Part shown: positions 1,947 to 35,411 of the stretch, one piece after another
How positions within the stretch are numbered: position 1 is the stretch's first letter
Layout of the letters: every line of letters begins with the position of its first letter
Source: Candidatus Eiseniibacteriota bacterium
GTDB lineage: Bacteria; Eisenbacteria; RBG-16-71-46; JABDJR01
NCBI GenBank assembly: GCA_963762255.1
Contig: CAVXKA010000002.1
Coordinates: 912,628 to 976,627, forward strand
Direction: 5' to 3'
Length of the DNA stretch: 64,000 nucleotides
Translations under genes and position numbers: made by a program
The notes under the pieces: generated by a model
What the model was told of the DNA's origin: nothing
Database searches by the model: none
Seen by the model: only the letters and a program-made list of their open reading frames with translations

Positions 1947-1995
1947 GCCGACCATGCTACCGGCCTCACGCGCGTCGCGCCATCCGTGCGCGCAG

Positions 1996-2027
1996 AAAAA
2001 AGAGGGGGTCGGTTGCCCGACCCCCTC
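1996..2027 (-). terminator. Rho-independent terminator downstream of the 2053..3969 gene
   Basis: Perfect 11-bp stem GAGGGGGTCGG / CCGACCCCCTC with a 4-nt loop. On the minus strand it is followed by a T7 run (plus strand GAAAAAAG). Confidence 0.7.
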
Positions 2028-2052
2028 TCGCGGAGCGTGATCCGCCGAGATT

Positions 2053-3969: not shown

Positions 3970-4116
3970 GTTGGCTGTACCCCCTAAGTGCAGTCTGGTC
4001 CACCCGAGGACACACGGTAGAGATAGAGGTGCCGGTGGACCAAGTCACCCCTCTATGGAAGCTAAGTCAGTGGGATGAGTCTAACCCGAATCCCCGGCGA
4101 TTTCAATGACAATTCC

Positions 4117-4134
4117 TTGACAGATGCGTGTCAA
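4117..4134. promoter_or_regulatory. Palindrome TTGACA-N6-TGTCAA in the intergenic region upstream of the 2053..3969 gene (candidate operator/-35)
   Basis: 18-nt inverted repeat about 150 nt upstream of the start at 3969. No convincing -10 was found. Confidence 0.2.
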
Positions 4135-4229
4135 CCGCAAGCTGTAACGACACTTGCGAATATGGCTTTCGAGACCTTCCAGAACCACGCTCCCCGCCCA
4201 GTCGGTTGGGGGCGGGCGATCACAACCTC

Positions 4230-5093
4230 TCAGGTTGCCGCGATTCGGGGGATGAGCGCCTCGATGAATCGGGTGAAGGTCTCCCGGAGACGCGAAGTCA
4301 CTTCCATAACCTCGCCGTGGGAAAGGGGCTCCAGCGAGAGGCCGGCGGCCCGGTTGGAGATGCAGGTGACACCCAACACCTCCATTCCCAGGTGCCTGGC
4401 CACGATGACCTCCGGCACGGTGGACATGCCCACGGCGTCTCCCCCGAGGCGACGCGCCATGGCGACCTCGGCCCGCGTCTCATAGGTGGGTCCGAGGTTC
4501 CCCCAGTAGGTGCCGGCCCGCAGCCCGCAGAGCCCTCGTTCCGCGGCAACCTCGAAGCCTATGGCCAGGAGGCGCTTCGAGAAGGGCTCGGCCAGATCCA
4601 CGAAACGATCCGCATCCACAAGAGGACCCCGGCCGCGCAGGGGGCTTCGAAACTGGAAGTTCACCTGGTCCTCGATGAGCATCAGGTCCCCGGGATTCAG
4701 GCGTGGGTCGACCCCGCCGGCGGCGTTCGTCACCACCAGCGCGCGCGCGCCGAGGGCATGCATGACGCGCAGCGGGAAGGTCACCTGGGCCGCCGAGTAC
4801 CCCTCGTACAGATGGAAGCGCCCCTGTTGGGCGGCGACGGGGACGCCGCCGGTCTGCCCGAGGACGAGCCTGCCCGCGTGCCCCTCCACCGTGGCAACAG
4901 GGAAGCCCGGCAGATCGCGGTAGTCCACAGCGACCGGCGCGGTGAGGGTGTCGGCGAACCCGCCGAGGCCGGAGCCCAGGATGAGCGCAACGCGTGGGAC
5001 GACTGGCGTGCGAGCGCGGATCACCTCCACGCACCGGGCGATGTCCGCCGGCGTGAATCCGATGCTGTCCGCATCGCGGAATCCGGCGCTCAT
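4230..5093 (-). CDS. Purine nucleoside phosphorylase (trimeric PNP/MTAP family)
   Basis: 287 aa. ...ALILGSGLGGFADTL...ATVEGHAGRLVLG...HLYEGY...STVPEVIVARHLGMEVLGVTCISN..., typical PNP-I/MTAP fold motifs. The stop overlaps the udk start by 4 nt. Confidence 0.8.
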   Translation of the reverse strand: MSAGFRDADSIGFTPADIARCVEVIRARTPVVPRVALILGSGLGGFADTLTAPVAVDYRDLPGFPVATVEGHAGRLVLGQTGGVPVAAQQGRFHLYEGYSAAQVTFPLRVMHALGARALVVTNAAGGVDPRLNPGDLMLIEDQVNFQFRSPLRGRGPLVDADRFVDLAEPFSKRLLAIGFEVAAERGLCGLRAGTYWGNLGPTYETRAEVAMARRLGGDAVGMSTVPEVIVARHLGMEVLGVTCISNRAAGLSLEPLSHGEVMEVTSRLRETFTRFIEALIPRIAAT

Positions 5094-5716
5094 CGCGCCT
5101 CCCGGAGCATGCTCCGCACTTTGGTCACAAGGAGATCGACGGCGACTCGGTTTCGCCCACCCTCGGGAATGATGATGTCGGCGTAGCGCTTGGAAGGTTC
5201 GATGAACTGGAGATGCATCGGGCGCACGCTCTCTTCGTACTGTTGGAGGATCGATTCCAGGCTTCTCCCCCGCTCCATCGTGTCCCGGCGGATGCGCCGG
5301 ATGAGCCGCACGTCGGGGTCGGTGTCGATGAACACCTTGATGTCCATGAGCTTTCGGAGCGCGGGATCCTCCAACACGAGGATCCCCTCCAGCATGATGA
5401 CGCGGTGCCCCTCCACGCGCACCGTCTCCGGCAGGCGGGAGTGGTGGGTGAAATCGTACGTGGGCTTCTCGATCGGCTGGCCGCGCAGGAGCGCCTCCAT
5501 GTGATCGAGGAGAAGCTCGCGGTCGAAAGCGTCGGGATGGTCGAAGTTGAGCTTCGCCCGCTCTTCTATGGTGAGGCCGGCGAAGTCCTTGTAGTAGGAA
5601 TCCTGCTCGATCATCACGACCTCTCGCGAACCCAGGTTCTCGATGAGGGTGGATGTGACGAGGGACTTCCCGGAAGCGGAGCCGCCGGCGATGCCGAGAA
5701 GAAGGGGCCCTTCCAT
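5090..5716 (-). CDS. udk: Uridine kinase
   Basis: 208 aa. P-loop GIAGGSASGKSLV and an ...IEQDSYYKD... uridine/cytidine kinase signature. Confidence 0.85.
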   Translation of the reverse strand: MEGPLLLGIAGGSASGKSLVTSTLIENLGSREVVMIEQDSYYKDFAGLTIEERAKLNFDHPDAFDRELLLDHMEALLRGQPIEKPTYDFTHHSRLPETVRVEGHRVIMLEGILVLEDPALRKLMDIKVFIDTDPDVRLIRRIRRDTMERGRSLESILQQYEESVRPMHLQFIEPSKRYADIIIPEGGRNRVAVDLLVTKVRSMLREAR

Positions 5717-5735
5717 GACGTCCTGTCCTGCTTTC

Positions 5736-6872
5736 CTAGAAATGATCCCGCGGCGGGACGAACTCCGGGCCGAAGGACCGGCCGATGAGTCCGTCCAGCT
5801 CGTCCAGGACCTGCGTAAGGAGCGCCACCTTGCGCCGCAGCGGAAGGAAGGCGCTCTTGAATCCGTTGAGCACGAGCTTGCGCACGTCCGCGACCCCCAG
5901 CCCGAACGCCTCGACGGCCTTGCGGTACTCGCGGGTAATGTCGGTGTCGCTCATGAGGGTGTTGTCCGTGTTGAGAGTCACCCGGAGCCCCGAATCGTAA
6001 TACAACCGGAACGGATGGTCCTCAAGGCGCTCCACCACCGCGGTCTGGAGATTGGAAGTGAGGCAGATCTCCAGAGGGATGCGGTGGTTGTTCACGTAGG
6101 CCATGAGGTCGGGATCCTCGTGCAGCCGCGTGCCGTGCCCTATGCGATGCGCCCCCAGCGCGTGCAGAGCCTGGTGGATGCTCGCCGGACCGTAGCCCTC
6201 TCCGGCGTGGCACGTGCAGTTGATGTTGTTCTTGAGGATCTTGTAGAAAGCGCTTCCGTGCTCCTTGGCCGGGTAGTTGAACTCGGCGCCGGCGAGATCG
6301 AACCCCACCACCCCGCTCTTCTTGTACTCGACGCATAGGTCGGCGAGGGCAAGGCTCTTGGCGGGAGACATGCTGCGGATGCTGCAGATGATGACGCCGG
6401 TCAGCACCCCCGTCGCCCGCGTTGCCTCATCGAGGCCGGCCAGCACCGAGTCCAGGATCTCCTGCATGGAGTGTCCCTTGAGTTCGTGAAGGATGGGCGA
6501 GAACCGCACCTCGATGTACCGCACGTTCTCCCGCGCGGCATCCTCCACCAGCTCGCGCGCCACGCGCCGCATGGCGCCCGGCTCCTGCAGCACGGAGAGC
6601 GTGTGCTGGAACGCGTCCAGGTACTCCTCCAACGACTCGCAGGCGTCCCCGCACACGAGGCGGCGGCGCAGCTCCGGCTCCGTCTCGCGGGCCAGGTCGA
6701 GGCTCTGGTCGCGGGCCAGCTCGCGAACGGTGTCGAGACGGACCGAGCCGTCGAGATGGATGTGAAGATCGGTCTTGGGGATCTCCCGAAGGAAGCTCGG
6801 GTGGGAGAGGATCATGGCGGTTTCGCGGCTCCGCTCCCCGGGACCGCTCCGCCCCAGCTCCGGCGCGCTCAT
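5736..6872 (-). CDS. add: Adenosine deaminase
   Basis: 378 aa. PKTDLHIHLDGS and metal-dependent hydrolase motifs (HAGE, SxNTDD-like LNTDNTL) typical of Add. Confidence 0.85.
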   Translation of the reverse strand: MSAPELGRSGPGERSRETAMILSHPSFLREIPKTDLHIHLDGSVRLDTVRELARDQSLDLARETEPELRRRLVCGDACESLEEYLDAFQHTLSVLQEPGAMRRVARELVEDAARENVRYIEVRFSPILHELKGHSMQEILDSVLAGLDEATRATGVLTGVIICSIRSMSPAKSLALADLCVEYKKSGVVGFDLAGAEFNYPAKEHGSAFYKILKNNINCTCHAGEGYGPASIHQALHALGAHRIGHGTRLHEDPDLMAYVNNHRIPLEICLTSNLQTAVVERLEDHPFRLYYDSGLRVTLNTDNTLMSDTDITREYRKAVEAFGLGVADVRKLVLNGFKSAFLPLRRKVALLTQVLDELDGLIGRSFGPEFVPPRDHF

Positions 6873-8171
6873 CTAGCGGATCTCCGCCCGCGAGAGAAGA
6901 TCGCGGATCGCTTGCGCTGGCCGCCGCAGGTATTCCTCGGGGTCGAGGTGTGGAAGGCGCCCGCTCGCGACACGGATCTCGCCGTCCACGACCACCCAGC
7001 GCACGGCGTCGCGCGCCGCGGCGTAGACGATCCGGTCGTAGACCGATACGCCGGGGCCGCCGAAGGTCTGCGGACGGTCGAGGTCGAGCACGACCACATC
7101 GCCGGCCTTTCCCGCCTCGAGGCTTCCGATCGCGTCATCCCATCCCACCGCCCGCGCGCCATCGATCGTGGCCATCTCGAGTGCGGCCATCGCGGAGAGA
7201 CTTCCCGGACCGCCCTTCAGGCCTTGCAACAGCGCGGCGAGGCGCATCTCCTCCAGCACGTCCATGTCGTTATTGCAGGGGGCGCCGTCGCAGCCGATGC
7301 CCACCGAGAGGTTGTCCTGCGCGCGCAGGAACGGCAGGTCGGCCACGCCGGATCCCAGCTTCAAGTTGGCCGTCGGGCAGTGCGCGATCTTGAGCGGTCG
7401 TCCGCCCAGCGTCTCCAACTCGGGCTCGCGAAGCCACACCGCGTGGGCGGCGCGCAAGTCAACGTCGAGCACGCCGGTCGTGCTCAGGAACTCCATCTGC
7501 CCCGTGCCCAGCGACGCCCGCACCGCCGCTTCCTCGGCTTCGCTCTCGAGAAGGTGCGTGTGTACGGGCGCGTCCAGCTCCGCGGCCAGGGCGGCGGTGC
7601 GCTCCCAGAGCGCGCGCGAGCAGGAAAGCACGAAGCGCGGGCAGAGGGCGCCGCGGATCCTTCCGTCGGCCTCTCCGTGCCAGCGGCGATACAGATCGCC
7701 CGCCTCCTCGATCGCCCGGTCCGGATCTTCGAGGAGCGCGCTCGGCGCGCCCTCGCCGGTATCCATCAGACACTTCCCCGCCACCGCGCGCAGGCCGGAG
7801 TCGCGGATCGCGCGAAAGATTCCCTCCATGCCGCGCACCAGGCCGAACTCCTGGATCGTGGTGGTGCCGGAGAGAAGACAGTCGGCCGCTCCAAGAAGCC
7901 CGGATGCGTACGCGGTGTCGTCGGTGTGCGCCGCCTCCAGCGGCCAGATGCGTTCGCGGAGCCAGCTCAGAAGCGGGCGGTCCTCGGCGAGGCCGCGAAA
8001 GAGGGCCTGACCGAGATGCACGTGCGCCTGGATGAACCCGGGCAGGACGAAGAGGCCCTGGGCCTCCAGGAGCCGCGTGGCAGGCGGCGGGACGATGCCG
8101 GGGCCGAGCGCAACGATGCGACCGTCGGTGATGAGGAGATCGCCTTCCAGCACGCGCCGCCCGGGGTCCAT
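6873..8171 (-). CDS. Amidohydrolase (COG0402-like nucleobase/nucleoside deaminase: guanine deaminase, MtaD or 8-oxoguanine deaminase-like)
   Basis: The homologous region starts ...LLIRGGTLVTMDPGRRVLEGDLLITDGRIVALG...LPGFIQAHVHLGQALFRG...HLLESEAE...HCPTANLKLGSG...GCDGAPCNNDMD.... The ATG at 8171 (MDPGRR) is the first Met. The true start is probably a non-ATG codon about 8198 (LLIRGG). The track ORF N-terminus up to 8957 is spurious and overlaps hpt. Confidence 0.7.
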   Translation of the reverse strand: MDPGRRVLEGDLLITDGRIVALGPGIVPPPATRLLEAQGLFVLPGFIQAHVHLGQALFRGLAEDRPLLSWLRERIWPLEAAHTDDTAYASGLLGAADCLLSGTTTIQEFGLVRGMEGIFRAIRDSGLRAVAGKCLMDTGEGAPSALLEDPDRAIEEAGDLYRRWHGEADGRIRGALCPRFVLSCSRALWERTAALAAELDAPVHTHLLESEAEEAAVRASLGTGQMEFLSTTGVLDVDLRAAHAVWLREPELETLGGRPLKIAHCPTANLKLGSGVADLPFLRAQDNLSVGIGCDGAPCNNDMDVLEEMRLAALLQGLKGGPGSLSAMAALEMATIDGARAVGWDDAIGSLEAGKAGDVVVLDLDRPQTFGGPGVSVYDRIVYAAARDAVRWVVVDGEIRVASGRLPHLDPEEYLRRPAQAIRDLLSRAEIR

Positions 8172-8224
8172 CGTGACCAGGGTGCCGCCGCGGATCAGGA
8201 GATGGCGATGGGACCGGGGCAGGG

Positions 8225-8755
8225 TCACGGCTGGCGGTAGACCTCTTCTTTGAGCACGCCGATGTAAGGCAGGTTCCGGTAGAGCTGGTTGTAGTCGAGC
8301 CCGTAGCCCACCACGAATTCGTTGGGACACTCGAAGCCGACGTACTTCACCGGCACTTCCTCGGCGCGAGCCTCGCGCTTGTCGAGCAGCGCGCAGATCT
8401 CCACCGACTTGGGATGGCGGGTGTAGAGGTTGTCGAGGAGATAGCGCGCGGTGAGGCCGGTGTCGATGATGTCCTCGACGATCAGGACGTGCCGTCCGTC
8501 GATGGGCTGGTTCAGATCCTTGAGGATGCGCACGACTCCCGAGGAGTGGGTGCCGCCGCCGTACGAGGAGACCGACATGAAGTCGACCTCGAGGTGGGTG
8601 TTCATCGAACGCACCAGGTCCGCCATGTAGGGAAAGCACCCGTTCAGGATGCCGACCATCAGAACGCGCCGGTCCGCGTAGTCGCGAGCGACCTCCGCAC
8701 CCATGGCCTGAACCTTGGCCCGGACTTGTTCCTCGCTGAAGAGAACCTCTCGCAT
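8225..8755 (-). CDS. hpt: Hypoxanthine-guanine phosphoribosyltransferase
   Basis: 176 aa from the internal Met (MREVLFSEEQVRAKVQ...). PRPP-binding VLIVEDIIDTGLT motif. The upstream 210 aa of the track ORF are Arg-rich junk. Confidence 0.85.
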   Translation of the reverse strand: MREVLFSEEQVRAKVQAMGAEVARDYADRRVLMVGILNGCFPYMADLVRSMNTHLEVDFMSVSSYGGGTHSSGVVRILKDLNQPIDGRHVLIVEDIIDTGLTARYLLDNLYTRHPKSVEICALLDKREARAEEVPVKYVGFECPNEFVVGYGLDYNQLYRNLPYIGVLKEEVYRQP

Positions 8756-8992
8756 GTCCGCACCGATACCGTTTTCCCAAGATTTCATGCTGTGGCGATT
8801 CCCCTCTCTCCCGCTGGTTATGGTGCTCCCGGTGGCTTGTCGAGATGCGCGAGGCCGGAGCCCGGGAGGTAGGACCGATCGGCGAGCATTCTGCCGCGTC
8901 CGCCCCCGGGAGGCAAGGCGCGAAACCGGGACACGCGGCGCCGCTCGGGGGTACCATGCGTGGAAGCTTCGGGCCGAAGGAGGGATGCGTTT

Positions 8993-9880
8993 ATGAGGTC
9001 TCGCGCGATCGCGTTGGTCTTGTTGTTGGCGGCTTGGATTCCCGGCGTTGCGGGGGCCTGGGAGTACCCCGTCACCCCCGGCGATCTCACTCCCCCGCTC
9101 GAGTTCGTGAAGATGACCATCGTCACGCCGGACTCCGCGAGGCTCGCCACCTGGTACGTGCCGGCGCAGGACAGCGCGGGGGCGGTGCTCCCCGGTCGCC
9201 ATCCCGGCGTGCTGGTCCTGCCCGGGGACCGCGACGTAATGGACGAGCGGCTGCACGTCGTTTCGGGACTCGCCCGCCGAGGCTTCTCGGTGCTCACCTT
9301 CGACCACCGCGGGCGCGGCGGCAGCAGCGACTTCTTCATCGACCGCCGCGCGCTCCTCTATCCGGAGTTTCTCGAGGACGCTCACTCCGCGCTCTTCATC
9401 CTGCGGCGCCAGGCCGAAGTGGATACGACGCAGCTCGCTCTCTACGGGGAATCGCGGGGCGCCTACCTCGCGCTGGCCCTGGCCGGCGAGCGACCGGAGA
9501 CGCGCGCGGTGGCCGCGATTTCACCCCCGTTCAGTTTCGCCACTTGGCTTCCGGTGCTGGAGCGCGAGGAGCCGGGCGAGACGTACTTCGTGCCCGACGG
9601 ATGGAAACGAAAGTGGGATGCCGACAAGGCGGTGGATCGCTTCAACGGCGCGATCCTGTTCGTTGCCGGCGATCGCGATCTCACGACGCCGGCCTGGATG
9701 GCCGAGGATCTCTTCAAGCGGTATCCGCGGAGCAAGGACCTCTGGATCGTGGAAGGCGCCGGGCACGCCGGGCCGCAGAGCCCGTCGCGCTTCGCGGGCG
9801 AACGCTTCTTCGGGCGCGTGAGCGAGTTCCTGCACCGCGAGCTGGAGCGCCCGCCCCATCGGGGGTGGCCGGAGCGGTGA
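8993..9880 (+). CDS. Secreted alpha/beta hydrolase (dienelactone hydrolase/S9-like)
   Basis: Signal peptide MRSRAIALVLLLAAWIPGVAGA. Nucleophile elbow YGESRGAY (GxSxG). Convergent with the BMC operon. Confidence 0.65.
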   Translation: MRSRAIALVLLLAAWIPGVAGAWEYPVTPGDLTPPLEFVKMTIVTPDSARLATWYVPAQDSAGAVLPGRHPGVLVLPGDRDVMDERLHVVSGLARRGFSVLTFDHRGRGGSSDFFIDRRALLYPEFLEDAHSALFILRRQAEVDTTQLALYGESRGAYLALALAGERPETRAVAAISPPFSFATWLPVLEREEPGETYFVPDGWKRKWDADKAVDRFNGAILFVAGDRDLTTPAWMAEDLFKRYPRSKDLWIVEGAGHAGPQSPSRFAGERFFGRVSEFLHRELERPPHRGWPER

Positions 9881-9929
9881 CGGAGCGCAGCCGGCCGAAA
9901 TCTTGGCCGGGCCTTCCCTGGATCCAGGG

Positions 9930-10397
9930 TCAGGGCGCGAGCAGGCGGCGAAGCAACCGAATCTGTCCGGCGTGGTAGGTCAGATGGGTCAGGAGCCGAA
10001 GGATGTAGGCCTGCACGGTGGCGCCGCCGGGCCATCCCTCCGCCGGCGCGGGCCCACCGAGGGCTCGCGGGTCCATCGTGAGGACCGCGGTCCGCGTCTC
10101 GACGCACGCTTCGTCCCACATCGCGAGCACATCCGCCTTCGACGCCCAGGGCTCGGCGGCGAACTCGCGATCGCGTTCGCGCGCGTAGTCGCTGCCGTAG
10201 AGAAGATGGCCGAAGAAGTGCCGGAGGTTGCCGACGAGATGGAGCGCGAGGTTGCCCGGCGAGACCGCGCCCGGCACCGGGCGCTCCCAGAGACGCGCCT
10301 CGGGGACCGCCTCCAGGTCCTCACGCACCGAGACGTGGTAGCGCTCCACCAGATCGGCGACGGTGTTGAGGAACTCCTGCTCCTGGCTCTCGACCAT
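9930..10397 (-). CDS. DinB/DUF664-family (DinB_2-like) four-helix-bundle protein, last gene of the BMC operon
   Basis: 155 aa from MVESQEQEFLNTVADLVERYH.... HxxxH-type DinB motifs (LALHLVGNLRHFFGHLL; THLTYHAGQI). The start lies 1 nt after the stop of the upstream BMC-P gene. Confidence 0.6.
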   Translation of the reverse strand: MVESQEQEFLNTVADLVERYHVSVREDLEAVPEARLWERPVPGAVSPGNLALHLVGNLRHFFGHLLYGSDYARERDREFAAEPWASKADVLAMWDEACVETRTAVLTMDPRALGGPAPAEGWPGGATVQAYILRLLTHLTYHAGQIRLLRRLLAP

Positions 10398-10398
10398 G

Positions 10399-10671
10399 TC
10401 AGATCCCCATGTGGACTTCGTCCACGACGCCAACGATGACGGCCCGCACCGGCGCGTTCGGGTCACCGACCACCTGGCGGGCGGAGTTGCCCTCGTCGAT
10501 CAGGAGCACCAGCTCGCCGGCGCCCGCGTCGACGGAGTCGAGCGCGATCACGTAGCGCCCGTCCGGCGCGAGCTTCTCGTCCAGGCGATCCACCAGCAGC
10601 ATGCGTCGCCCCTGATAGAACGGGTGCTGGATCGTGGAGACGACGGTGCCGGTTACTCTGCCGAGGAACAT
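10399..10671 (-). CDS. BMC vertex protein (BMC-P, EutN/CcmL/PduN family), copy 1
   Basis: 91 aa. MFLGRVTGTVVSTIQHPFYQGRRMLLVD...AGAGELVLLIDEGNSARQVVG...VRAVIVGVVDEVHMGI, a canonical EutN/CcmL fold sequence. Confidence 0.8.
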   Translation of the reverse strand: MFLGRVTGTVVSTIQHPFYQGRRMLLVDRLDEKLAPDGRYVIALDSVDAGAGELVLLIDEGNSARQVVGDPNAPVRAVIVGVVDEVHMGI

Positions 10672-10709
10672 CGCGAGGTCCCTCCGTCCGGCGACGCGAA
10701 CACGTTCAC

Positions 10710-10979
10710 CTACTGGTCGCTCACGTCGTCGGCGATGCCGACGATGGCGTGGTCCACGGGCACGAAGGTCTCGGGCAACGCCATCGCGGCCTCGCGCCCG
10801 CCGATGAAATAGACGAGCTCGCCGGGACCGGCCTGCCCGGTGGCGTCGGCGCACACCAGCGGATCGCCCGCGCTCTTCATCTTGCGGTCGAGCGGCTCCA
10901 CCATCAGGAGCTTCACCCCTTCGAGCCCTTCGCTCTTGACCGTCGCCACCAGCGTGCCGCGCACCCGCCCGAGTTGCAT
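10710..10979 (-). CDS. BMC vertex protein (BMC-P), copy 2
   Basis: 89 aa. MQLGRVRGTLVATVKSEGLEGVKLLMVEPLD...GELVYFIGGREAAMA.... Its ATG overlaps the stop of the upstream BMC-T (ATGA). Confidence 0.8.
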   Translation of the reverse strand: MQLGRVRGTLVATVKSEGLEGVKLLMVEPLDRKMKSAGDPLVCADATGQAGPGELVYFIGGREAAMALPETFVPVDHAIVGIADDVSDQ

Positions 10980-11605
10980 CAGCCTTCGCCCTGGTTCCAC
11001 TGGGCCGCGAAACGCGTCCCGCCGAAGATGTTCTCGGCCAGTTCGGTATGGAGCCGCGGAATCACAACTTTCTGCACGAGGTTGCCGCTCTCGATCGCGG
11101 AAACGCCGAATTCCACCGCGGCCTCCACGTCGGCCTGCTCGCCGGCAAAGAGCAGAAGCGCCTTCCCGCCCAGACCGTTGGCGAGACGAAGCTCCACCAG
11201 CGCCACCTGCGCCCCCTTCATACCGGCATCGGCGGCGCGGATCGCGCTCACCGTGGTGCGCGTCTCGATCACGCCGAGCGTGTCGATGGGATCCTTCGAG
11301 CGCTGACCGGCGATGGCGTTGCCCACTGCGGGGTGGATGTCGGGAAGGAACAGGCGATCGATGAGCGCGGGCGCGCCCGCCTCCACTCCGGCAGCGAGCG
11401 ATTCCTCGACGCTGGCCACGTCGCCGTCCACCAGCACCAGGTACTTGCCCGGATGAACGCTCCCCGCCACCAGCGCCCGCACCGGCGCCTTCTTCACCAT
11501 CGCGTCGGCCGCTCGCATGCCGAGCGCGATGCTCGAGAACTCGAGGAGTCCGAGCGCGGGCACAGTCACCCCGGGAGCGAGGTCGGCGGCTTCGATCGAG
11601 TCCAT
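10979..11605 (-). CDS. BMC-T shell protein (tandem BMC-domain pseudohexamer)
   Basis: 208 aa with two BMC domains (ALGLLEFSSIALGMRAADAMVKKAPV... and TLGVIETRTTVSAIRAADAGMKGAQVALVE...). Confidence 0.75.
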   Translation of the reverse strand: MDSIEAADLAPGVTVPALGLLEFSSIALGMRAADAMVKKAPVRALVAGSVHPGKYLVLVDGDVASVEESLAAGVEAGAPALIDRLFLPDIHPAVGNAIAGQRSKDPIDTLGVIETRTTVSAIRAADAGMKGAQVALVELRLANGLGGKALLLFAGEQADVEAAVEFGVSAIESGNLVQKVVIPRLHTELAENIFGGTRFAAQWNQGEG

Positions 11606-11615
11606 CGTCCCTTTC

Positions 11616-13052
11616 CTACACGATCCGGAAGCGGTCCACGAGGACGCACCGCCGCCAGCGGGTGAAACTGCGAGCGCGGGTCATTCCCTCGCCGGTGGGG
11701 CTCGCGATCGAGAACGAGGTGAACCCCTCGCCGCCCGCGCCCAGCCCGGCCAGCGACGAGCCGTTCTTGACGAAGATCGAGCAGTCCATGACCCGGGCCA
11801 TGCGGCTCAGGGCATCCACGTTCCGCGAGTGCATGACCGCGGTGTGGCGGAAGCCGTGCTCGGCGGCCTTGGCCAGATCGATAGCCGCGTTCACGTCGCG
11901 CACGCGCACCAGCGGCATGACCGGCATCATCTGCTCGGTCCAGACCAGCGGATGATCCTCGGGGACTTCCACCAGGATCATGCGCACGTCGTCGCCCACC
12001 GTGATCCCCATCTCCTTGAGAATGACGGCGGGGATCTTTCCGATGAAGTTCTTGTTGATCACGCCGTGCTGGCGCGGCCCGCGCATCTCGGTGAAGATCG
12101 TCTTCTCGAGCTTCCCGAGCTGCCAGGCGGTGAGTTCCACCGCGCCGGCGGCGATCATCGCCTTCTTCAGGCGATCCGCCACCGCGTCCACGCAGATCAC
12201 TTCCTTCTCCGTGGTGCAGACGATCTGGTTGTCGAAGGATCCGCCTTTGACGATGTCGCGACCGGCGCGCTCGAAGTCGGCGGTCTCGTCCACCACCACC
12301 GGCGGATTACCAGGGCCCGCGCAGATGGCGCGCTTGCCGCTGCCCATCGCCTCTTTCACCACGCCGGGACCGCCGGTGACGACCAGCAGGTTGACCAGCT
12401 TGTGGCGCATGAGTTCCTGCGCGCTCTCGATCGTGGGATTGGCCACACACGTGACGAGGTTGGGCGGCCCGCCCGCGGCGGTGATCGCCTGATTGATGAG
12501 CTGCACCGTCTTGGCCGAGCAGTTCTTGGCGTTGGGATGGGCGTTGAAGACGGCCGCGTTCCCCGCCGAGAGCATCCCGATCGCGTTGTTGATGATGGTG
12601 GCGGTGGGGTTGGTGGTCGGTGTGATCGCGCCCACCACGCCGAAGGGCGCAAGCTCCAGAAGCGTGAGCCCGTGGTCGCCGGTGGTGACCAGTGGTTCGA
12701 GATCCTCGGGCCCCGGGCTCTTGTTGATGACGAGAAGGTTCTTCTCGACCTTGTCCTCGTAGCGGCCGAGCCCGGTCTCCTCGCGCGCCATCCAGGAGAG
12801 CAGCTCCGCGTTGTGACGCAGCACGACCCGCATCTGGGCGATGATGTCGTAGCGCAGGGCGAGGCTCGACTCACAAAGCAAGCGCTGCGCTTCCTTGGCC
12901 GCGGTGACCGCGCTCTCCACGCCGGCGAAGATGCCGTCGCTCCCGGGCGCCGGGGGCGGCGGGAGCGGCTTCCCCTCGGGGGTGTGGCCCGACTTCATCG
13001 AGCCCAACACATCCTGCACCGTGCGGCTGATCTCCTCGCGGGAGATGCTCAT
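11616..13052 (-). CDS. CoA-acylating aldehyde dehydrogenase (PduP/EutE-like metabolosome signature enzyme) with an N-terminal encapsulation-peptide-like helix
   Basis: 478 aa. ALDH fold with a catalytic Cys region (...NQIVCTTEKEVI...) and PduP/EutE-like layout. The N-terminus ISREEISRTVQDVLGSM (amphipathic) is followed by a Pro-rich linker GKPLPPPPAPGSDG. Confidence 0.8.
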   Translation of the reverse strand: MSISREEISRTVQDVLGSMKSGHTPEGKPLPPPPAPGSDGIFAGVESAVTAAKEAQRLLCESSLALRYDIIAQMRVVLRHNAELLSWMAREETGLGRYEDKVEKNLLVINKSPGPEDLEPLVTTGDHGLTLLELAPFGVVGAITPTTNPTATIINNAIGMLSAGNAAVFNAHPNAKNCSAKTVQLINQAITAAGGPPNLVTCVANPTIESAQELMRHKLVNLLVVTGGPGVVKEAMGSGKRAICAGPGNPPVVVDETADFERAGRDIVKGGSFDNQIVCTTEKEVICVDAVADRLKKAMIAAGAVELTAWQLGKLEKTIFTEMRGPRQHGVINKNFIGKIPAVILKEMGITVGDDVRMILVEVPEDHPLVWTEQMMPVMPLVRVRDVNAAIDLAKAAEHGFRHTAVMHSRNVDALSRMARVMDCSIFVKNGSSLAGLGAGGEGFTSFSIASPTGEGMTRARSFTRWRRCVLVDRFRIV

Positions 13053-13067
13053 CCGCCTCTCCTTCCC

Positions 13068-13364
13068 TTACTCATTCGACTTGTCGTAGACACGGCGATC
13101 GTCCAGCTCCCAGGTGTCCACGATCGCCATCACGACGGCGTCGCAGGGACGGTCCTTGGTGGACTGGGTCTGGCGCGCACTGGAGCCGGTGGCGAAGAGG
13201 ACGACTTCGCCGACCCCCGCCCCCACTGCATCGCTCGCCACCACGAAGCTGCCGGTCTCCTTGGCTTCCGCGGTGAGCTGGCGCAGGAGCAGGAACTTGA
13301 GTCCCTCCATGCTCTCTTCCTTGCGCGAGGCCACCACGGTGCCGACCACCCGGGCCAGTAGCAT
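13068..13364 (-). CDS. BMC vertex protein (BMC-P), copy 3
   Basis: 98 aa. [30 protein letters not shown]...[14 protein letters not shown].... Confidence 0.8.
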
Positions 13365-13421
13365 GAGCTTTCCTCCGCGGACGGGGCCGGGACGCGTGCC
13401 CCGACCCCGTTCGGAAGTGCG

Positions 13422-13733
13422 TTACTTGCCGCCCATCTCGGCGCGGGCTTCCTTGCTCCGGCCGAGAGGCAGCGCGATGTCCACGTTGACGTGCGGCCGC
13501 GGAATGGTGTGCGTGCTCACCACCTCGCCCACCTTCTCCGCCCCACGCTTGCCGGCATCCACCGCCGCTTTCACCGCGGCCACGTCGCCGCGGACGATGA
13601 CCGTCACATAGCCCCCGCCGATCTTCTCGTAGGCGACCAACTCCACCTTCGCCGCCTTCACCATGGCGTCGGCGGCTTCCACCGTCGCGGCGAATCCGCG
13701 GGTTTCGATCATGCCCAGCGCTTCTGCCATCAC
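13422..13733 (-). CDS. BMC-H hexamer shell protein (PduA/EutM-like)
   Basis: 103 aa. [81 protein letters not shown], a near-canonical Pfam00936 sequence. Confidence 0.9.
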
Positions 13734-13824
13734 GTCCTCCGTTGCTTCGGGTTATGCGGCCGGGGAGGCGCCTTCGTCGGGCTTCACGGCCCGCGCGTGC
13801 CCCGTCCGGTCTTCTGAAATCGTT

Positions 13825-14454
13825 CTAGGACTCCCGCCCGGTCAACTCCGCGATCGCGGCCTCGGCGGCGCGGTACCCGACGTCGATGTCGCGCTCCTCA
13901 CCGCCGAGATAGATGCGGCCGAACGAACCGAACGCGCGCACATCGAGAATGTTGATGTGCGCCGCCTTCTCCGCCTCGTTGGCGGCGAGCGCCGCGTAGG
14001 CCGCGGGCTCCAGCTCCATGACGTATAGGCTATGCCCCGGCACCAGCATGTTGCCGTGGCGCATCCGGTTGATGAGCTGGGCCTGGAGCGGATCCACGAG
14101 GCGGATCACCTGGCTCGAGAGGACGCGCGGCTTGCGCCGGTCGCTCTCGGTGAGACCGCACGCATCGAGGATCGCCTGCCCCGCCTGGCGCACTTCGCCC
14201 TGCGATTCGGAGTGAACCTCGAGAAGGCCGTACAGGCGCTCGACGATCTGCATGCCGGGAAAAACGTTGGTGCTCTTCACCGCGATGTCGGTGATGCGGT
14301 TGATCTCGATGCCGGGTGAGATCTCCACGTACAGGCACGCTTGGCCGGGCAGCGGCAGGAACCCTCCCGCCACCGTGCCCAGGAACGCCGCGTGCTGCGG
14401 CTGCAAGCTGTCGAGAAACACGTAGGAGCGCAGGTCGATCTGCGTTTTCGCCAT
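13825..14454 (-). CDS. BMC-T shell protein, permuted tandem type (PduB/EutL-like)
   Basis: 209 aa from [31 protein letters not shown].... Two permuted BMC repeats. The ATG overlaps the deoC stop (ATGA). The track ORF N-terminus up to 15306 is Arg-rich junk. Confidence 0.7.
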
Positions 14455-15488
14455 CAGTAAGGACCTTTCGTTTGCGGGGAGTCGACGGCCTCGCCGCGCG
14501 ACTCCTTCACGATGCGCACCCCCGCCGAGGCGCCGATGCGGGTCGCCCCCGCCTCGATCATCCCCAGCGCATCGGCATAGCTCCGAATGCCGCCCGCGGC
14601 CTTCACCCCCATTTCGGGGCCCACCGTGGCGCGCATGATGGCCACGTCGCGGATGGTCGCCCCCCCTGAGGCGAATCCGGTGGAGGTCTTCACGAAATCC
14701 GCGCGCGCGCGCTTGGCGAGAAGGCAGGCCACGACCTTTTCCTCGTCGGTGAGGAGGGCGGCTTCGATGATCACCTTCACGATCACGTTCGATTCGTGGC
14801 AGGCGGCGGTGACCTCGGCGATGTCTTCCTCCACCAGATCGTAGTTCCCGCTCTTGAGCGCGCCCACGTTGATGACCATGTCCACCTCGCGCGCGCCCTC
14901 GCGGATCGCCTTGCGCGACTCGAAAGCCTTGGTGGCGGGAGTGGTGGCGCCGAGCGGGAAGCCGACCACGGTGCAGACCTTGGCGTCGCTCCCTCGCAAG
15001 AGCTGCGCGCAGAGTCGCACGAAGCTTGGGTTGACGCACACCGAGGCGAAGTGGTTGCGCGCCGCTTCCTCGCAGAGCTTCTGAATCTCCGCTTCGGTGG
15101 CGTCGGGCTTGAGCATGGTGTGGTCGATGTAGCTGGCGATGTCGTGGGCCACCGCGCCGCTTCCGCCGCCGGAGCCGATACGCGACGCGCCGGCGGCCAC
15201 AAAGCTTCGCACCGTCTCCGGGCTGCGCTGCGCGGGGTTCGTGCTGCGCGCGCGGTCTTCGGAGTCTGCGGAGCTGGCGTGACGGATGGCGGGTCGCTCG
15301 TAGCACGGCTCGTAGGAGCGGCGGTAGGCCTCGGTGACCGCGGGGCCCTTGGGTGCCGACCCGGCGGGCGAGGACGGCTTGCTTGCTGCAGGCGCTTCCG
15401 CCGTTGGCGGCGCCGCGGCGGCCGGCCCCTGCAGCCGGGCCAGCACCTCGCGGGTGATCCGCTCGATGAGGGCATCGCGCTCGTTCAT
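14454..15488 (-). CDS. deoC: Deoxyribose-phosphate aldolase with an N-terminal encapsulation peptide and long Ala/Pro/Ser linker
   Basis: 344 aa from [22 protein letters not shown] (amphipathic helix), then an ~80-aa low-complexity linker ([28 protein letters not shown]...). The DeoC TIM-barrel follows: ...[15 protein letters not shown]...VCVNPSFV...[10 protein letters not shown]...FVKTSTGF...[21 protein letters not shown]. The ATG overlaps the rpiB stop. Confidence 0.85.
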
Positions 15489-16045
15489 CGCGCTCCCGCT
15501 CCCGCCCCGTCCAGGGCGTCGATCTTGGCCACCCGCTTCAAGTGGCGCTCTTCCGTGCAGGCGGTCGCAAGAAAGGTCTTCACGATCGCGCGGGCGAGCA
15601 CGACGCCGATCAATCCCGCTCCCAGCGTGACCACGTTGGCGTTGTTGTGCTCGCGCGCGTTGGCGGCGGTGGAGAGGTCGTAGCAGAGCGCGGCCCGCGC
15701 GCCCGGAATCTTGTTGGCGGCCATGCAGGATCCGATGCCGGCGCCGTCGATCATGATCCCGAACTCGGCGCGCCCATCGACGACCGCGCGCGCGACCGCC
15801 GCCGCGAAGTCGGGATAGTCCACCGCGTCGGTGGAGTGCGTGCCGAGGTCGACCGGTTCCCACCCGATCGTCGGGAGGAATCGCTTGAGATCTTCCTTGA
15901 GCGGAAAGCCGCCGTGGTCGGCGCCGATCGCCACTCGGCGCGCCGCGACCGCACCGGGATTCGCGAGCGATGCGTCGACGACGCGCTCCACCACCGTGCG
16001 CACGAGATTCTCAAGCTCTCGATCGTGCAAGCCGCCGTCCTCCAT
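15485..16045 (-). CDS. rpiB: Ribose-5-phosphate isomerase B with an N-terminal encapsulation-peptide-like extension
   Basis: 186 aa. About 35-aa extension ([20 protein letters not shown]) before the RpiB/LacAB core [16 protein letters not shown]...[23 protein letters not shown].... Confidence 0.8.
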
Positions 16046-16124: not shown

Positions 16125-16697
16125 ATGGCCGACAAGACGCGCTGCGCATGGGCGGGCACCGATCCCCTCTACGTGGCTTACCACGATCACGAGTGGGGCG
16201 TGCCCGAGCACGACGATCGCGCGCTCTTCGAGAAGCTCCTGCTGGACGGGTTCCAGGCCGGCCTGGCCTGGATCACGATCCTGCGCAAGCGCGAGAACTT
16301 TCGGCGGGCCTTCGACGGGTTCGACCCGGAGAAGATCGCCCGCTACCGCGCGGCGAAGATCGAATCGCTGCTCGCGGATCCCGGTATCGTGCGCAACCGG
16401 CAGAAGGTAGCGGCCTCGGTGGGCAATGCGCGGGCCTACATCGAGCTGAGGAAGGAAGCCGGGAGTTTCGACCGGTATCTGTGGAGCTTCGTGGGGGGGA
16501 AGCCGATAATGAACGCGTACCGGACGATGGCGGAATTGCCGGCGCGGTCGGCGGAATCCGAAGCGATGAGCCGCGATCTCGTGCGTCGGGGGTTTCGATT
16601 CGTGGGCCCCACCATCTGCTACGCGTTCATGCAGGCGGTGGGGATGACGCACGATCACCTCGTCGACTGCTTCCGGTACGGAAAGCTCAAGCCATGA
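16125..16697 (+). CDS. tag: DNA-3-methyladenine glycosylase I
   Basis: 190 aa. ...DPLYVAYHDHEWGVPEHDDRALFEKLLLDGFQAGLAW...VGPTICYAFMQAVGM..., Zn-finger Tag signature residues. Confidence 0.85.
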   Translation: MADKTRCAWAGTDPLYVAYHDHEWGVPEHDDRALFEKLLLDGFQAGLAWITILRKRENFRRAFDGFDPEKIARYRAAKIESLLADPGIVRNRQKVAASVGNARAYIELRKEAGSFDRYLWSFVGGKPIMNAYRTMAELPARSAESEAMSRDLVRRGFRFVGPTICYAFMQAVGMTHDHLVDCFRYGKLKP

Positions 16698-17839: not shown

Positions 17840-19975
17840 TCAGGGCCGGATATCGAGCCTGATACGGGCGTCGACCGCCACGCATCCCTTGCCAACTGAT
17901 AGCACCTTTACAGGGTTCAGGTCCATCTCCGCGATCTCGGGATGATTCCCCACCAGAACGGACACACGCAGGATCGCTTCCTCCAGGGCCGGGACATCGG
18001 CCGGAGGCGCGCCGCGATAGCCGTTGAGGAGTGCATACCCCCGAACCCCCCGAACCATTTCGTCGGCGTCGCGGTCGGTGAGCGGGTGGATGCGGAAGGT
18101 CACGTCCTTCATCACTTCGACCTGCACCCCGCCGAGGCCGAACGCCACGAGCGGGCCGAACTTGGGATCCTGGGTCACGCCGACCAGAACCTCGACCCCT
18201 TCCTTCACCAGGGGCTGCACGGTGAAGCCGTGCGCCGCGCCCTCCAGGCCGCGGGTGCGCAGCGCGGCGCAGATCTCGTTCACCGCGCTCTCGACCTCCG
18301 CTTCCGTGCGCAGGTCGAGCCGCACACCGCCCACGTCGCTCTTGTGCGAGATGGAATCGGAGTGGAGCTTCACGACCACGGGGAAACCGAGGGAGCGCGC
18401 GGCGGCCGCCGCCTCCTTGGGGGTCGCGGCGAAGAGCACGGGCGGGGTGCGGATGCCGTACGCGGCCAGGACGCGGTCGACTTCGTCGGCGTTGAGCCAG
18501 CCGCCTTCATCGCCCATGCGCTCGCGCGCGGCCGCAAACACCGCGGCGGCGTCCGCCGCGCGCACGTCGTCAAAGGCGATCTCGCGACCGGGGGCCTTCG
18601 CCATCCACTGGCCGTGGCGCACCGCGCGCCCGAGCACGCGCACCGCGCTCTCGGGAAACGCATACGAGGGGATGTTTCCCTCCTTGAGCGAGCGCAGTCC
18701 TTCCGGCACGCCGTGCTTGCCGAGGAAGCAGGTGAGCACCGGCTTCTCGGTGCCTTCGGAGCCGTTCACGATCCCCCGCGCCACCTCGCGGGGCTCCGTC
18801 ACGATCGGCGGCACGAAGAGCGCGATCAAGGCGTCGATCTTCGGGTCCGCGAGCAGCGCCCGCGTGGCACGCTCGTAGTTCTGCGCGGTGGCCGAAGCGA
18901 TCATGTCCACCGGGTTGCGCACGCTCGCTTCCGGGGGAAGGAACTCGTGCAGGCGCGCCGTGGTGCTCTCGCTCAGGTCGGACACCTCCAGCCCGTGCGC
19001 CTCGCAGGCATCGGTCGCGAGGATCCCGGGACCGCCGGCGTTGGTCAGGATGGCCACGCGGCTCCCCTTCGGGATCGGCTGATACGCGAGGAACGCGGCC
19101 ATGTCGAAGAGTTCTTCCACGGTGTCGACGCGGATGATGCCGGTCTGCGCGAAGAGCGCGTCCACCGCCACGTCGGCGCCTGCCAGGGCGCCGGTGTGGC
19201 TCGTGGCCGCGGTCATGCCTCGGCGCGTGCGCCCGCTCTTTACGGCGACGATCGGCTTGCGCCGCGTGATCTCACGAGCGAGCCGCGTGAACTTGCGGGG
19301 GTTACCGAACGATTCCAGGTACAAGAGCATGACCTTGGTGCGCGGGTCGGCGTCCCACCACTGCACGAGGTCGTTGCTGGAAACGTCGGCCTTGTTCCCG
19401 ATGGAGACGAAGTCGCTGACCCCGATGTTGAAGCTGCGCGTGTAGTCGAGGATGGCCACCCCGAGCGCGCCGCTCTGGCTGGCGATGGCCACGTTGCCTT
19501 CCGGCGGATAGGTCGGGGCAAAGGTCGCGTCGAGGCGCACGTCGGGTGCGGTGCTGAGCACACCGAGGCAATTCGGCCCCACCAGGCGCATGCCGTGCGC
19601 GCGAACGATCTCCTTCAAGCGCGCTTCGCGGGCCGCGCCTTCTTCGTTGACTTCCTTGAACCCGGCCGAGATCACGACCACCCCGCGCACACCCTTCGCG
19701 GCGCAGGCTTCGACCATGGCGACGACGACCTTGGCCGGCACCACGACCACCGCGAGGTCGACCGGGCCCGGGATATCGGCGATGCTCGCGTAAGCCTTCA
19801 CCGACTGCACGAAGTCGGACTTGAGGTTGACCGGGTACACCGGCCCCTGGAAACCGTTCAAGAGCAGGTTGCGGAAGATCTCGCCGCCGATCGACCCGCG
19901 CTCGGTGGAAGCGCCGATCACCGCCACCGATCGCGGGCGCAAGAGACCCGAGAGATCCACGGCGCTCCCGCTCAC
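17840..19975 (-). CDS. Acetyl-CoA synthetase (ADP-forming) / NDP-forming acyl-CoA synthetase, fused alpha-beta
   Basis: About 711 aa from the GTG at 19975 (overlapping the usp stop). CoA-binding domain (SVAVIGASTERGSIGGEIFRNLL), succinyl-CoA-synthetase-like His region and C-terminal ATP-grasp. The upstream 197 aa of the track ORF are junk. Confidence 0.75.
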   Translation of the reverse strand: MSGSAVDLSGLLRPRSVAVIGASTERGSIGGEIFRNLLLNGFQGPVYPVNLKSDFVQSVKAYASIADIPGPVDLAVVVVPAKVVVAMVEACAAKGVRGVVVISAGFKEVNEEGAAREARLKEIVRAHGMRLVGPNCLGVLSTAPDVRLDATFAPTYPPEGNVAIASQSGALGVAILDYTRSFNIGVSDFVSIGNKADVSSNDLVQWWDADPRTKVMLLYLESFGNPRKFTRLAREITRRKPIVAVKSGRTRRGMTAATSHTGALAGADVAVDALFAQTGIIRVDTVEELFDMAAFLAYQPIPKGSRVAILTNAGGPGILATDACEAHGLEVSDLSESTTARLHEFLPPEASVRNPVDMIASATAQNYERATRALLADPKIDALIALFVPPIVTEPREVARGIVNGSEGTEKPVLTCFLGKHGVPEGLRSLKEGNIPSYAFPESAVRVLGRAVRHGQWMAKAPGREIAFDDVRAADAAAVFAAARERMGDEGGWLNADEVDRVLAAYGIRTPPVLFAATPKEAAAAARSLGFPVVVKLHSDSISHKSDVGGVRLDLRTEAEVESAVNEICAALRTRGLEGAAHGFTVQPLVKEGVEVLVGVTQDPKFGPLVAFGLGGVQVEVMKDVTFRIHPLTDRDADEMVRGVRGYALLNGYRGAPPADVPALEEAILRVSVLVGNHPEIAEMDLNPVKVLSVGKGCVAVDARIRLDIRP

Positions 19976-20436: not shown

Positions 20437-20589
20437 GCTCCACCTTCCTCTCCGCCCCGGATCCGTGCGGCGCGCGCGGCCTCCGGATCTGTTCGAGGCG
20501 CGCGGCCATCGCGTCCGCGCCCGGGGCTGTTGCTATCAGTATAGCCCGCGCCGCTTGCGCCGGCACCGCGCATTCCCCACACTCTGGCC

Positions 20590-35208: not shown

Positions 35209-35411
35209 GCGGATCCTCCCTTCGTGGAGGGGCACTCCGTGGAGAGCCGCCTCGACACCCATCCGGCCTCACTCGCGGACGGGCAGTCTACAACAAGTGC
35301 CACCGTCCTGCCCTCCCCCTGCAAGAGCGAGCGTGCTGGCGCGAGCCCAGACTCTATCTTCTTATATCTACAAGGGTTGCGGGTGCGATTGGGGGCACGC
35401 GTTCGCGACTG

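Follow-up and report, generated by a model that had tools for sequence, protein, structure and literature searches.

We analyzed a 64,000-nucleotide (nt) stretch of contig CAVXKA010000002.1 from a Candidatus Eiseniibacteriota bacterium (positions 912,628 to 976,627; below, "the window"; base composition, ∼67% G+C). On its minus strand, at positions 4230 to 8755, lies a five-gene nucleoside operon, and beside it is a bacterial microcompartment (BMC) locus of the sugar phosphate utilizing (SPU) type. The same five genes, in the same order, lie beside the same SPU locus in all seven genomes of this clade that carry the operon, the window included. On balance, we favor the reading that, in this Eisenbacteria-like lineage, the operon has been conserved as downstream partner to an SPU3-type microcompartment locus and is functionally coupled to it.

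SPU loci have been proposed to catabolize DNA-derived deoxyribose-5-phosphate, with deoB encoding the upstream step (PMC11585597, PMC8217296, PMC4207490). A genome-wide reconstruction from nucleosides to deoxyribose-5-phosphate has been given for SPU-like microcompartments of Hodarchaeales (preprint, PMC12747264), and a DNA-foraging study cites an earlier proposal made for Izimaplasma. The model in the first-pass annotation of the window, in which scavenged (deoxy)nucleosides or extracellular DNA feed the microcompartment, is thus a published hypothesis; what the window adds is neighborhood evidence for it. The five genes, from hpt to the phosphorylase gene, are as follows.

8225..8755, minus strand: hypoxanthine(-guanine) phosphoribosyltransferase, hpt, 176 aa (TIGR01203, 215 bits; cutoff, 150)
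6873..8228, minus strand: COG0402 amidohydrolase, an MtaD/DadD-like deaminase, 451 aa, GTG start (Amidohydro_1, E = 1.5e-60)
5736..6872, minus strand: adenosine deaminase, add, 378 aa from the first ATG, with an alternative ATG at 6815 (TIGR01430, 298.8 bits; cutoff, 216.55; A_deaminase, E = 1.3e-90)
5090..5716, minus strand: uridine kinase, udk, 208 aa (TIGR00235, 275.7 bits; cutoff, 220.3; PRK05480, 305.6 bits; cutoff, 180; Pfam PRK, E = 1.3e-42)
4230..5093, minus strand: purine nucleoside phosphorylase (PNP), trimeric PunA/PNPH type, 287 aa (PRK08202, 326.9 bits; cutoff, 218; TIGR01697, 284.1 bits; cutoff, 197.1; PNP_UDP_1, E = 2.7e-51)

In profile searches, four of the five genes exceeded curated NCBIfam cutoffs, the amidohydrolase being the exception; a public protein collection contains an identical 451-aa amidohydrolase with the same GTG start. 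The junctions, read from the sequence, are tight. The hpt stop overlaps the amidohydrolase start in GTGA, the amidohydrolase stop abuts the add start in TAGATG, a 19-nt spacer that includes AGGA separates add from udk, and the udk stop overlaps the PNP start in ATGA. The first-pass annotation had the positions and names of all five genes right, and its description of codirectional genes with overlapping or abutting stop and start codons is also correct.

The clade comparison comprised the window and six relatives and was assembled from context look-ups of DeoC, AldDh (the CoA-acylating aldehyde dehydrogenase), and amidohydrolase homologs. The first-pass annotation had named a lack of conserved synteny between nucleoside genes and SPU loci as a finding that would count against its model; what we found was adjacency in 7 of 7 operon-bearing genomes. 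This linkage, like the gene identities and the operon packing, is an observation. The arrangement in each of the relatives is as follows.

L087/L002: operon to BMC locus, 3.6 kb, with a DinB-like gene and an M14 peptidase gene between
L089: operon to BMC locus, 7.2 kb
L085/L001: operon to BMC locus, 7.7 kb
L086/L088: operon to BMC locus, ∼10 kb, on one 909-kb contig
L090: last BMC-P gene to NupC start, 19 nt; hpt-amidohydrolase-add-udk-PNP next, on the same strand
L091: 17 codirectional genes from RpiB to PNP, with flavin reductase-like, HD-domain, and NupC genes between the shell genes and hpt

The last two are divergent members of the clade, and in them the operon, with its NupC gene, continues from the shell genes with gaps of 6 to 63 nt. 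A gene for a NupC-family transporter directly precedes hpt in five of the six relatives (L085:8061-9374, L087:8039-9346, L089:8029-9339, L090:8068-9372, and L091:7995-9320); L086 has an HD-domain gene there instead, and the window has neither. The HD/HD_assoc_2 protein encoded ahead of hpt in L086 and L091 matched no NCBIfam model. Where a spacer separates the two blocks, its content varies among relatives (PAS kinase, M14 peptidase, PAP2, MFS, and hydrolase genes); therefore, the two blocks have stayed together through repeated insertions. Inside the microcompartment operon of L090, an inserted open reading frame (ORF) of 1,043 aa without a Pfam match (L090:4275-7406) separates the BMC-Ts gene from the BMC-P pair.

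Part of the operon also occurs alone. Just the hpt-amidohydrolase pair is found at L092:9387-11317, L093:9276-11296, and L172:9462-11326 (the last from a member of the Nannocystaceae), with amidohydrolases 59 to 63% identical to that of the window; within 10 kb of these pairs there was no add, udk, PNP, or NupC gene and no microcompartment. In L172 the hpt and amidohydrolase genes share one boundary base. The solitary pairs suggest that the two genes form an old module with a role linked to that of Hpt; the tight pairing is kept across phyla. A neighbor-joining tree of the amidohydrolases placed L091 outside a group that included the pairs without microcompartments; it carried no support values and was not used to infer the ancestral arrangement.

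The neighboring locus in the window and the genes on either side of it, in the order in which the minus strand is read, are as follows.

17840..19975, minus strand (start approximate): ADP-forming acetyl-CoA synthetase-like enzyme (CoA_binding_2, Succ_CoA_lig, Ligase_CoA_2, ATP-grasp_5; TIGR02717, 553 bits, just under the cutoff of 567)
15485..16045, minus strand: RpiB-type sugar-phosphate isomerase with a 36-aa N-terminal extension (TIGR01120, 147 bits; cutoff, 138.65; LacAB_rpiB, E = 4.6e-50)
14454..15488, minus strand: deoxyribose-phosphate aldolase, DeoC/DERA (TIGR00126, 279.9 bits; cutoff, 117.3; matching residues 121 to 331)
13825..14454, minus strand: BMC-Tdp (CsoS1D-like) shell protein, orthologous to the 209-aa PF27545 CsoS1D_N genes of relatives
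13422..13733, minus strand: BMC-H shell protein, from its translation, with 82 to 91% identity to the PF00936 genes of relatives
13068..13364, minus strand: BMC-P shell protein, first copy, 98 aa, from its translation; orthologous to the 98-aa EutN_CcmL genes of relatives
11616..13052, minus strand: AldDh, CoA-acylating aldehyde dehydrogenase, whose homologs have PF00171 and are named EutE
10979..11605, minus strand: BMC-Ts (tandem BMC-domain) shell protein, orthologous to 208- to 214-aa PF00936 genes in L001, L002, and L088
10710..10979, minus strand: BMC-P shell protein, second copy, 89 aa; its translation aligns with the 89-aa EutN_CcmL gene of L087
10399..10671, minus strand: BMC-P (pentamer) shell protein, third copy, with a EutN/CcmL-like translation and tblastn orthologs in relatives
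9930..10466, minus strand: DinB/MST-like protein, encoded at the end of the microcompartment operon, with a probable ATG near 10397 (Pfam MST, DUF1572, DinB_2)
8960..9880, plus strand: alpha/beta hydrolase, between the operon and the microcompartment locus (Pfam Hydrolase_4, Peptidase_S9)
8756..8959: divergent intergenic region of 204 bp between hpt and the opposite-strand hydrolase gene, from the coordinates

This is an SPU locus, in that a PF01791 DeoC gene and a PF02502 RpiB gene adjoin shell genes, and its predicted content matches the written SPU3 description: BMC-Tdp, BMC-Ts, neither PduS nor PTAC (Pfam scans of ORFs saw neither family in the window), and putative N-terminal encapsulation peptides on AldDh and DeoC. 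The DeoC gene overlaps that of RpiB by 4 nt, and its product has an N-terminal extension of ∼120 aa with an amphipathic helix at its start. By inspection, termini resembling encapsulation peptides are present in AldDh, DeoC, and RpiB and in none of the five operon proteins. The AldDh of the window is 73% identical to a Candidatus Eisenbacteria protein. The acetyl-CoA synthetase-like gene lies 1.8 kb beyond RpiB and is also beside the BMC locus in L001 and L002; its product is a probable outlet for microcompartment acetyl-CoA and could yield ATP. Such an outlet fits the locus because the locus has no phosphotransacetylase. Acetate kinase is likewise not in the microcompartment locus.

The first-pass annotation had called the operon immediately adjacent to the BMC locus, with the encapsulated DeoC about 1 kb away. 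The neighboring locus is real, and "immediately adjacent" is a little generous: the distance from the hpt start (8755) is 1.6 kb to the last shell gene (10399) and 5.7 kb to DeoC, and two genes intervene, those for the alpha/beta hydrolase (on the plus strand) and the DinB/MST-like protein. The hydrolase belongs to neither pathway; its orthologs fall within the variable spacer of L085, L086, and L089. The DinB/MST-like gene, which apparently starts ∼1 nt past the last BMC-P stop and is kept after the BMC-P pair in L085, L088, and L089, encodes a DinB/mycothiol-S-transferase-like protein that may be an unrecognized accessory of this SPU variant. In this genome the intergenic region at 8756..8959 must harbor the operon's own promoter. 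A sigma-70 consensus scan of 3900 to 10700 gave one promoter-like site, with 0.6 expected, and none upstream of hpt.

We scanned species-representative genomes with an alignment of AldDh, which gave, among the matches listed, 80 loci from many phyla. DeoC plus shell genes were present in 61 of these 80 loci (median length, 18 kb; 39 were at least 15 kb), and these 61 were probed for PNP, DeoD, udk, add, the amidohydrolase, hpt, Pdp, DeoB, Cdd, NupC, and the HD protein. Again among the matches listed, there was no close relative of the window: the best AldDh identity was 66%, and most amidohydrolase matches had 40 to 51% identity. Two of the 61 loci (L084 and L066) and one short fragment (L064) had nucleoside genes, and all three are from the Planctomycetes-Verrucomicrobia-Chlamydiae (PVC) group. 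In L084 (Lentisphaerae; region 9029-13323), the last BMC-P gene (9295-9567) overlaps deoB (9564-10739) by 4 nt, and deoB is followed on the same strand by genes for a thymidine/pyrimidine nucleoside phosphorylase, a PunA-type PNP, and a cytidine deaminase; deoB, pdp, punA, and cdd are all above NCBIfam cutoffs (4 of 4). In L066 (Verrucomicrobiota; region 11815-15950), BMC-P is followed, after a gap of 8 nt, by deoB-pdp-punA-cdd, and in the L064 fragment (2308-3900) deoB comes directly after BMC-P. The linkage between nucleoside genes and SPU loci is therefore real but lineage-specific, not general to SPU loci, and nucleoside genes were recruited to such loci at least twice, with different gene sets. 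The published SPU descriptions and supplements that we examined make no mention of nucleoside genes as neighbors of SPU loci, and PF01048 and PF01676 yielded nothing relevant in the supplementary data of the SPU papers.

If the operon feeds the microcompartment, we would expect it to work as follows. Nucleosides would be taken up by NupC in the relatives; the NupC gene is missing from the window. Add would deaminate adenosine and deoxyadenosine, and the COG0402 enzyme would act on adenosine-type substrates, for example, methylthioadenosine (MTA) or 5'-deoxyadenosine. PNP would cleave (deoxy)inosine and (deoxy)guanosine to the base and (deoxy)ribose-1-phosphate, after which Hpt would recapture the nitrogen-rich base as inosine or guanosine monophosphate; Udk would salvage uridine and cytidine. 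Uptake, deamination, phosphorolysis, and base salvage would all be located in the cytosol. A phosphopentomutase encoded elsewhere would shift the pentose-1-phosphate to the 5-position, and deoxyribose-5-phosphate would pass into the shell. There, AldDh would trap acetaldehyde as acetyl-CoA, from which the ADP-forming acetyl-CoA synthetase could then give ATP. In this scheme, we infer the substrates, the flux from the operon into the shell, and the mutase.

The enzymes make a coherent set: two deaminases for adenine moieties, a trimeric PNP, and Hpt for the recovery of hypoxanthine and guanine. Trimeric PNPs are not known to accept 6-aminopurine nucleosides. Because the PNP of the window is expected to take only 6-oxopurine nucleosides, the deamination step by Add or the amidohydrolase would be required. 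This PNP belongs to the trimeric PunA/PNPH/XapA family, and the solved structures nearest to it are trimeric PNPs, human PNP among them. Its motifs YETRAE and CISN, matched to the human sequence by eye and not by a computed alignment, presumably correspond to Glu201 and Asn243 of human PNP, the Glu/Asn pair that specifies 6-oxopurines. Against the inosine/guanosine equivalog TIGR01700 it scored 282.8, slightly below the cutoff of 293.35.

The strongest rival to functional coupling is that the operon serves housekeeping salvage of purines and pyrimidines and lies where it does through inherited gene order, with no metabolic coupling. Hypoxanthine for Hpt would come from Add and PNP, Udk would recycle uridine and cytidine, and the pentose phosphate would go to central metabolism. 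We regard this as possible, yet rather unlikely. The following observations weigh against coupling, for housekeeping salvage, or both. Hpt and Udk are anabolic, consuming phosphoribosyl pyrophosphate and ATP to make nucleotides, which is salvage and not catabolism. Because the opposite-strand gene at 8960-9880 intervenes, the operon and the BMC genes are not cotranscribed in the window, where the operon is its own transcription unit. The hpt-amidohydrolase pair stands alone in L092, L093, and L172, although these loci also count in favor of coupling, in that without the microcompartment no more of the operon than this pair is kept. The four closest relatives are syntenic over the whole region, from mutY/ACD to the type IX secretion system (T9SS) and LTD proteins; therefore, their adjacency is not independent evidence. 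Among the matches listed, nucleoside genes are missing within 10 kb of AldDh in 59 of the 61 SPU loci elsewhere, and in an unbiased clustering of their ORFs no accessory family was shared by more than nine of the 61.

Three further negatives count against coupling itself. NupC is not encoded anywhere in the 64 kb (tblastn with a relative's NupC; best E = 0.15), a phosphopentomutase of either known type was found neither in the 64 kb nor in the loci of the six relatives, and no pyrimidine nucleoside phosphorylase or cytidine deaminase is present. Lacking a pyrimidine nucleoside phosphorylase, this clade would have purine deoxynucleosides as its only possible source of deoxyribose(-1-phosphate).

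Housekeeping salvage, however, does not account for L090 and L091, in which the operon and NupC come directly after the shell genes on the same strand at gaps of tens of nucleotides or fewer, nor for the repeated spacer turnover that never separated the two blocks, nor for the PVC-group loci that independently took up deoB-pdp-punA-cdd. For these reasons we prefer functional coupling. The feeding model of the first-pass annotation is thus supported, with caveats. All of its parts that could be checked were borne out (the gene identities, the operon-like packing, and the lack of deoB and deoA in the 64 kb); the synteny (7 of 7), the contiguity in L090 and L091, and the PVC-group gene sets speak for it, and the separate transcription unit, the missing NupC, and the 59 of 61 listed loci without nucleoside neighbors speak against it.

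The identity of the amidohydrolase raises another alternative, the recycling of S-adenosylmethionine (SAM) by-products. Here the amidohydrolase would be an MTA or 5'-deoxyadenosine deaminase, PNP would act as a methylthioinosine or 5'-deoxyinosine phosphorylase, and Hpt would recover hypoxanthine; a link to the microcompartment would run through acetaldehyde from the 5-deoxyribose shunt, or there would be no link. The top NCBIfam equivalog of the amidohydrolase is indeed PRK07228, 5'-deoxyadenosine deaminase; the nearest solved structures are 4dzh, 3lnp, 4f0r (MTA/S-adenosylhomocysteine [SAH] deaminase), and Tm0936 (PDB 1j6p/2plm); JGI names the close homologs 5-methylthioadenosine/S-adenosylhomocysteine deaminase; and the tight hpt-amidohydrolase pairing across phyla also agrees with this idea. 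However, the PRK07228 score of 436 bits is under the cutoff of 522, and other equivalogs are also below theirs (PRK15493, 191 versus 779; guanine deaminase TIGR02967, 204 versus 375). The assignment is secure only at the level of the superfamily (Amidohydro_1); the score being under the cutoff, we call the enzyme no more than MtaD/DadD-like. The PNP falls far below the cutoffs of the MTA phosphorylase and methylthioinosine phosphorylase models in profile searches (64 to 79 bits versus 223 to 275), yet it is above the PNP cutoff. Pfam scans found no MtnA-type isomerase or class II aldolase in the window, and add, udk, and NupC would be left unexplained. We therefore consider SAM by-product recycling improbable. 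The 5-deoxyribose (dihydroxyacetone phosphate) shunt was dropped as a source of acetaldehyde because the window has neither of those two enzymes.

The contexts of more distant amidohydrolase homologs support a link between this family and nucleoside catabolism. Homologs with 39 to 46% identity close deoC-deoB-pdp-punA-cdd operons that have no shell genes (L139:5354-11305 and L145:5075-11254), and further homologs sit after punA-cdd in L099 and L149. Those in L139 and L145 may act as purine nucleoside deaminases.

The scope of the searches for missing genes was the 64-kb window, from a contig of at least 1.44 Mb. Escherichia coli DeoB, DeoA, and DeoD gave no match to the six frames of the window by tblastn (best E = 1.0, 3.3, and 7, respectively), and another 40 ORFs from across the window, scanned with Pfam, had no Metalloenzyme (DeoB), PGM_PMM (the alternative type of mutase), PfkB, or nucleoside hydrolase domain and no Glycos_transf_3 (DeoA/Pdp), Nucleos_tra2 (CNT), or Nuc_deoxyrib_tr N-glycosidase domain. 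The first-pass annotation had reported both deoB and thymidine phosphorylase as absent from the 64 kb, leaving the step from deoxyribose-1-phosphate to deoxyribose-5-phosphate unaccounted for in the window, and both methods agree with it. In the coupled model, this narrows the gap in the clade to one missing step, the mutase. It is very unlikely, in our judgment, that the clade genomes have no canonical phosphopentomutase anywhere, in which case the shift from the 1- to the 5-position would be made by the RpiB-like partner of DeoC or by a conserved unannotated neighbor, or the shell would admit deoxyribose-1-phosphate.

Least probable of all, with only a slim chance of being right, is that the module feeds the microcompartment without a canonical phosphopentomutase, by an unrecognized enzyme of the locus or by a deoxynucleotide N-glycosidase or deoxyribokinase route to deoxyribose-5-phosphate; no DeoB- or PGM-type gene lies in the window or the six relatives' loci, and PVC-group loci carry deoB inside, but deoB is often unlinked to punA, the RpiB mechanism requires a 2-hydroxyl, the search covered ∼64 kb of the contig, and the window has no PfkB kinase, Nuc_deoxyrib_tr, or nucleoside hydrolase. 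In favor of this reading, SPU loci universally link RpiB to DeoC, and deoxyribose cleavage gives RpiB no clear role (PMC11585597).

Several other features of the window were noted. DNA glycosylase genes flank the microcompartment: tag (16125-16697, plus strand) is divergent from rpiB by 80 bp, and mutY is at 20369-21721 (plus strand). The positions of both are kept in L001 and L002, and that of tag also in L088; we claim no link between them and the catabolism of DNA sugar. On the other side, past PNP, are genes for a secreted protein with a T9SS-type C-terminal tail (2053-3969, minus strand) and a CarboxypepD_reg-like protein (3-2138, minus strand). All six relatives keep this order and have a giant LTD/Big_5 protein after it; therefore, synteny reaches well past the two metabolic blocks. 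A PHO4 phosphate-transporter ORF (33556-33978, minus strand) matches only model positions 243 to 350 of 350, so that the gene is truncated, frameshifted, or continued upstream in another frame; a DUF47/PhoU-like gene (34585-35268) comes after it. Tandem paralogs at 46988-49024 and 49027-51381 (both plus strand; ∼680 to 785 aa) have no Pfam match; both have signal-peptide-like N termini and a C-terminal WFGFPLY..DWFREE motif.

Few bacterial organelles are as widespread as SPU microcompartments, but what supplies them in vivo has never been demonstrated, and the idea of DNA scavenging is founded on a single enzyme identity, that of DeoC. Gene neighborhoods now add support from two independent lineages, which attach genes for nucleoside uptake and cleavage to shell genes (NupC, deaminases, PNP, and Hpt in one; deoB, pdp, punA, and cdd in the other). 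They also name substrates for tests (for the PVC-group loci, all deoxynucleosides; for this clade, those with a purine base) and suggest a division of labor, with the base retained by the cell and the sugar used as fuel.

Compared with known systems, the window's enzymes and organelle are familiar, and their association is not described in the sources examined. Among COG0402 enzymes, the MTA, SAH, and 5'-deoxyadenosine deaminases (Tm0936, 4f0r) are the best sequence matches of the window amidohydrolase. A deaminase-plus-phosphorylase route exists for MTA, and the window amidohydrolase likewise has a phosphorylase as partner, along with Hpt, by which the freed hypoxanthine would be recovered. 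In contrast to those systems, the window enzyme is below the equivalog cutoff, and its PNP is probably of the inosine/guanosine type, not a phosphorylase of MTA or methylthioinosine.

Deo-type operons, such as deoCABD of E. coli (our L004) and dra-nupC-pdp and drm-pupG of B. subtilis, share with the window's clade the linkage of PNP to DeoC, the presence of NupC (in the relatives), and the sequence from nucleoside through pentose-1-phosphate to DeoC. They differ in that the window cluster has neither deoB nor deoA/pdp, its PNP is of the trimeric PunA type and not DeoD, its DeoC would be encapsulated and is encoded in a separate transcription unit, and Hpt, Udk, and two deaminases are added, so that the content is mixed salvage and catabolic.

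The Hodarchaeales SPU-like microcompartments (PMC12747264) resemble the proposed working in the order of steps: deoxynucleoside phosphorolysis, phosphodeoxyribomutase, and then DERA inside the compartment. That reconstruction, however, draws on scattered genes and a uridine phosphorylase, whereas ours draws on gene neighborhood and a purine-specific route. In Verrucomicrobiota (L066) and Lentisphaerae (L084), and in the fragment L064, nucleoside-cleaving genes come after the SPU locus on the same strand, among them one for a PunA-type PNP 40% identical to that of the window. Theirs are a phosphopentomutase, a pyrimidine nucleoside phosphorylase, and a cytidine deaminase, with no salvage enzymes, whereas in the window's clade the mutase is missing and hpt, udk, NupC, and two purine deaminases are present. 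L084 and L066 hold within the locus a full gene set from deoxynucleosides to deoxyribose-5-phosphate, which is not mentioned in the published SPU descriptions examined.

Published SPU3-type loci (Sutter et al. 2021, PMC8217296, Supplementary Data 2; Dwyer et al. 2024, PMC11585597) share with the window locus AldDh, the PF01791 DeoC, the PF02502 RpiB, the encapsulation-peptide-like N termini on AldDh and DeoC, one BMC-H, a BMC-P triplet, BMC-Tdp, and BMC-Ts, and the lack of PduS and PTAC, and their proposed substrate is deoxyribose-5-phosphate from DNA breakdown. Their published component lists, however, contain no nucleoside transporter, deaminase, phosphorylase, or kinase. The genes here are ordinary and the organelle type is known, but a conserved nucleoside module attached to an SPU3 locus is a variant absent from the published SPU descriptions examined: in this clade the five genes, with NupC in relatives, are a conserved neighbor of the locus, and in L090 and L091 they are physically continuous with its shell genes.

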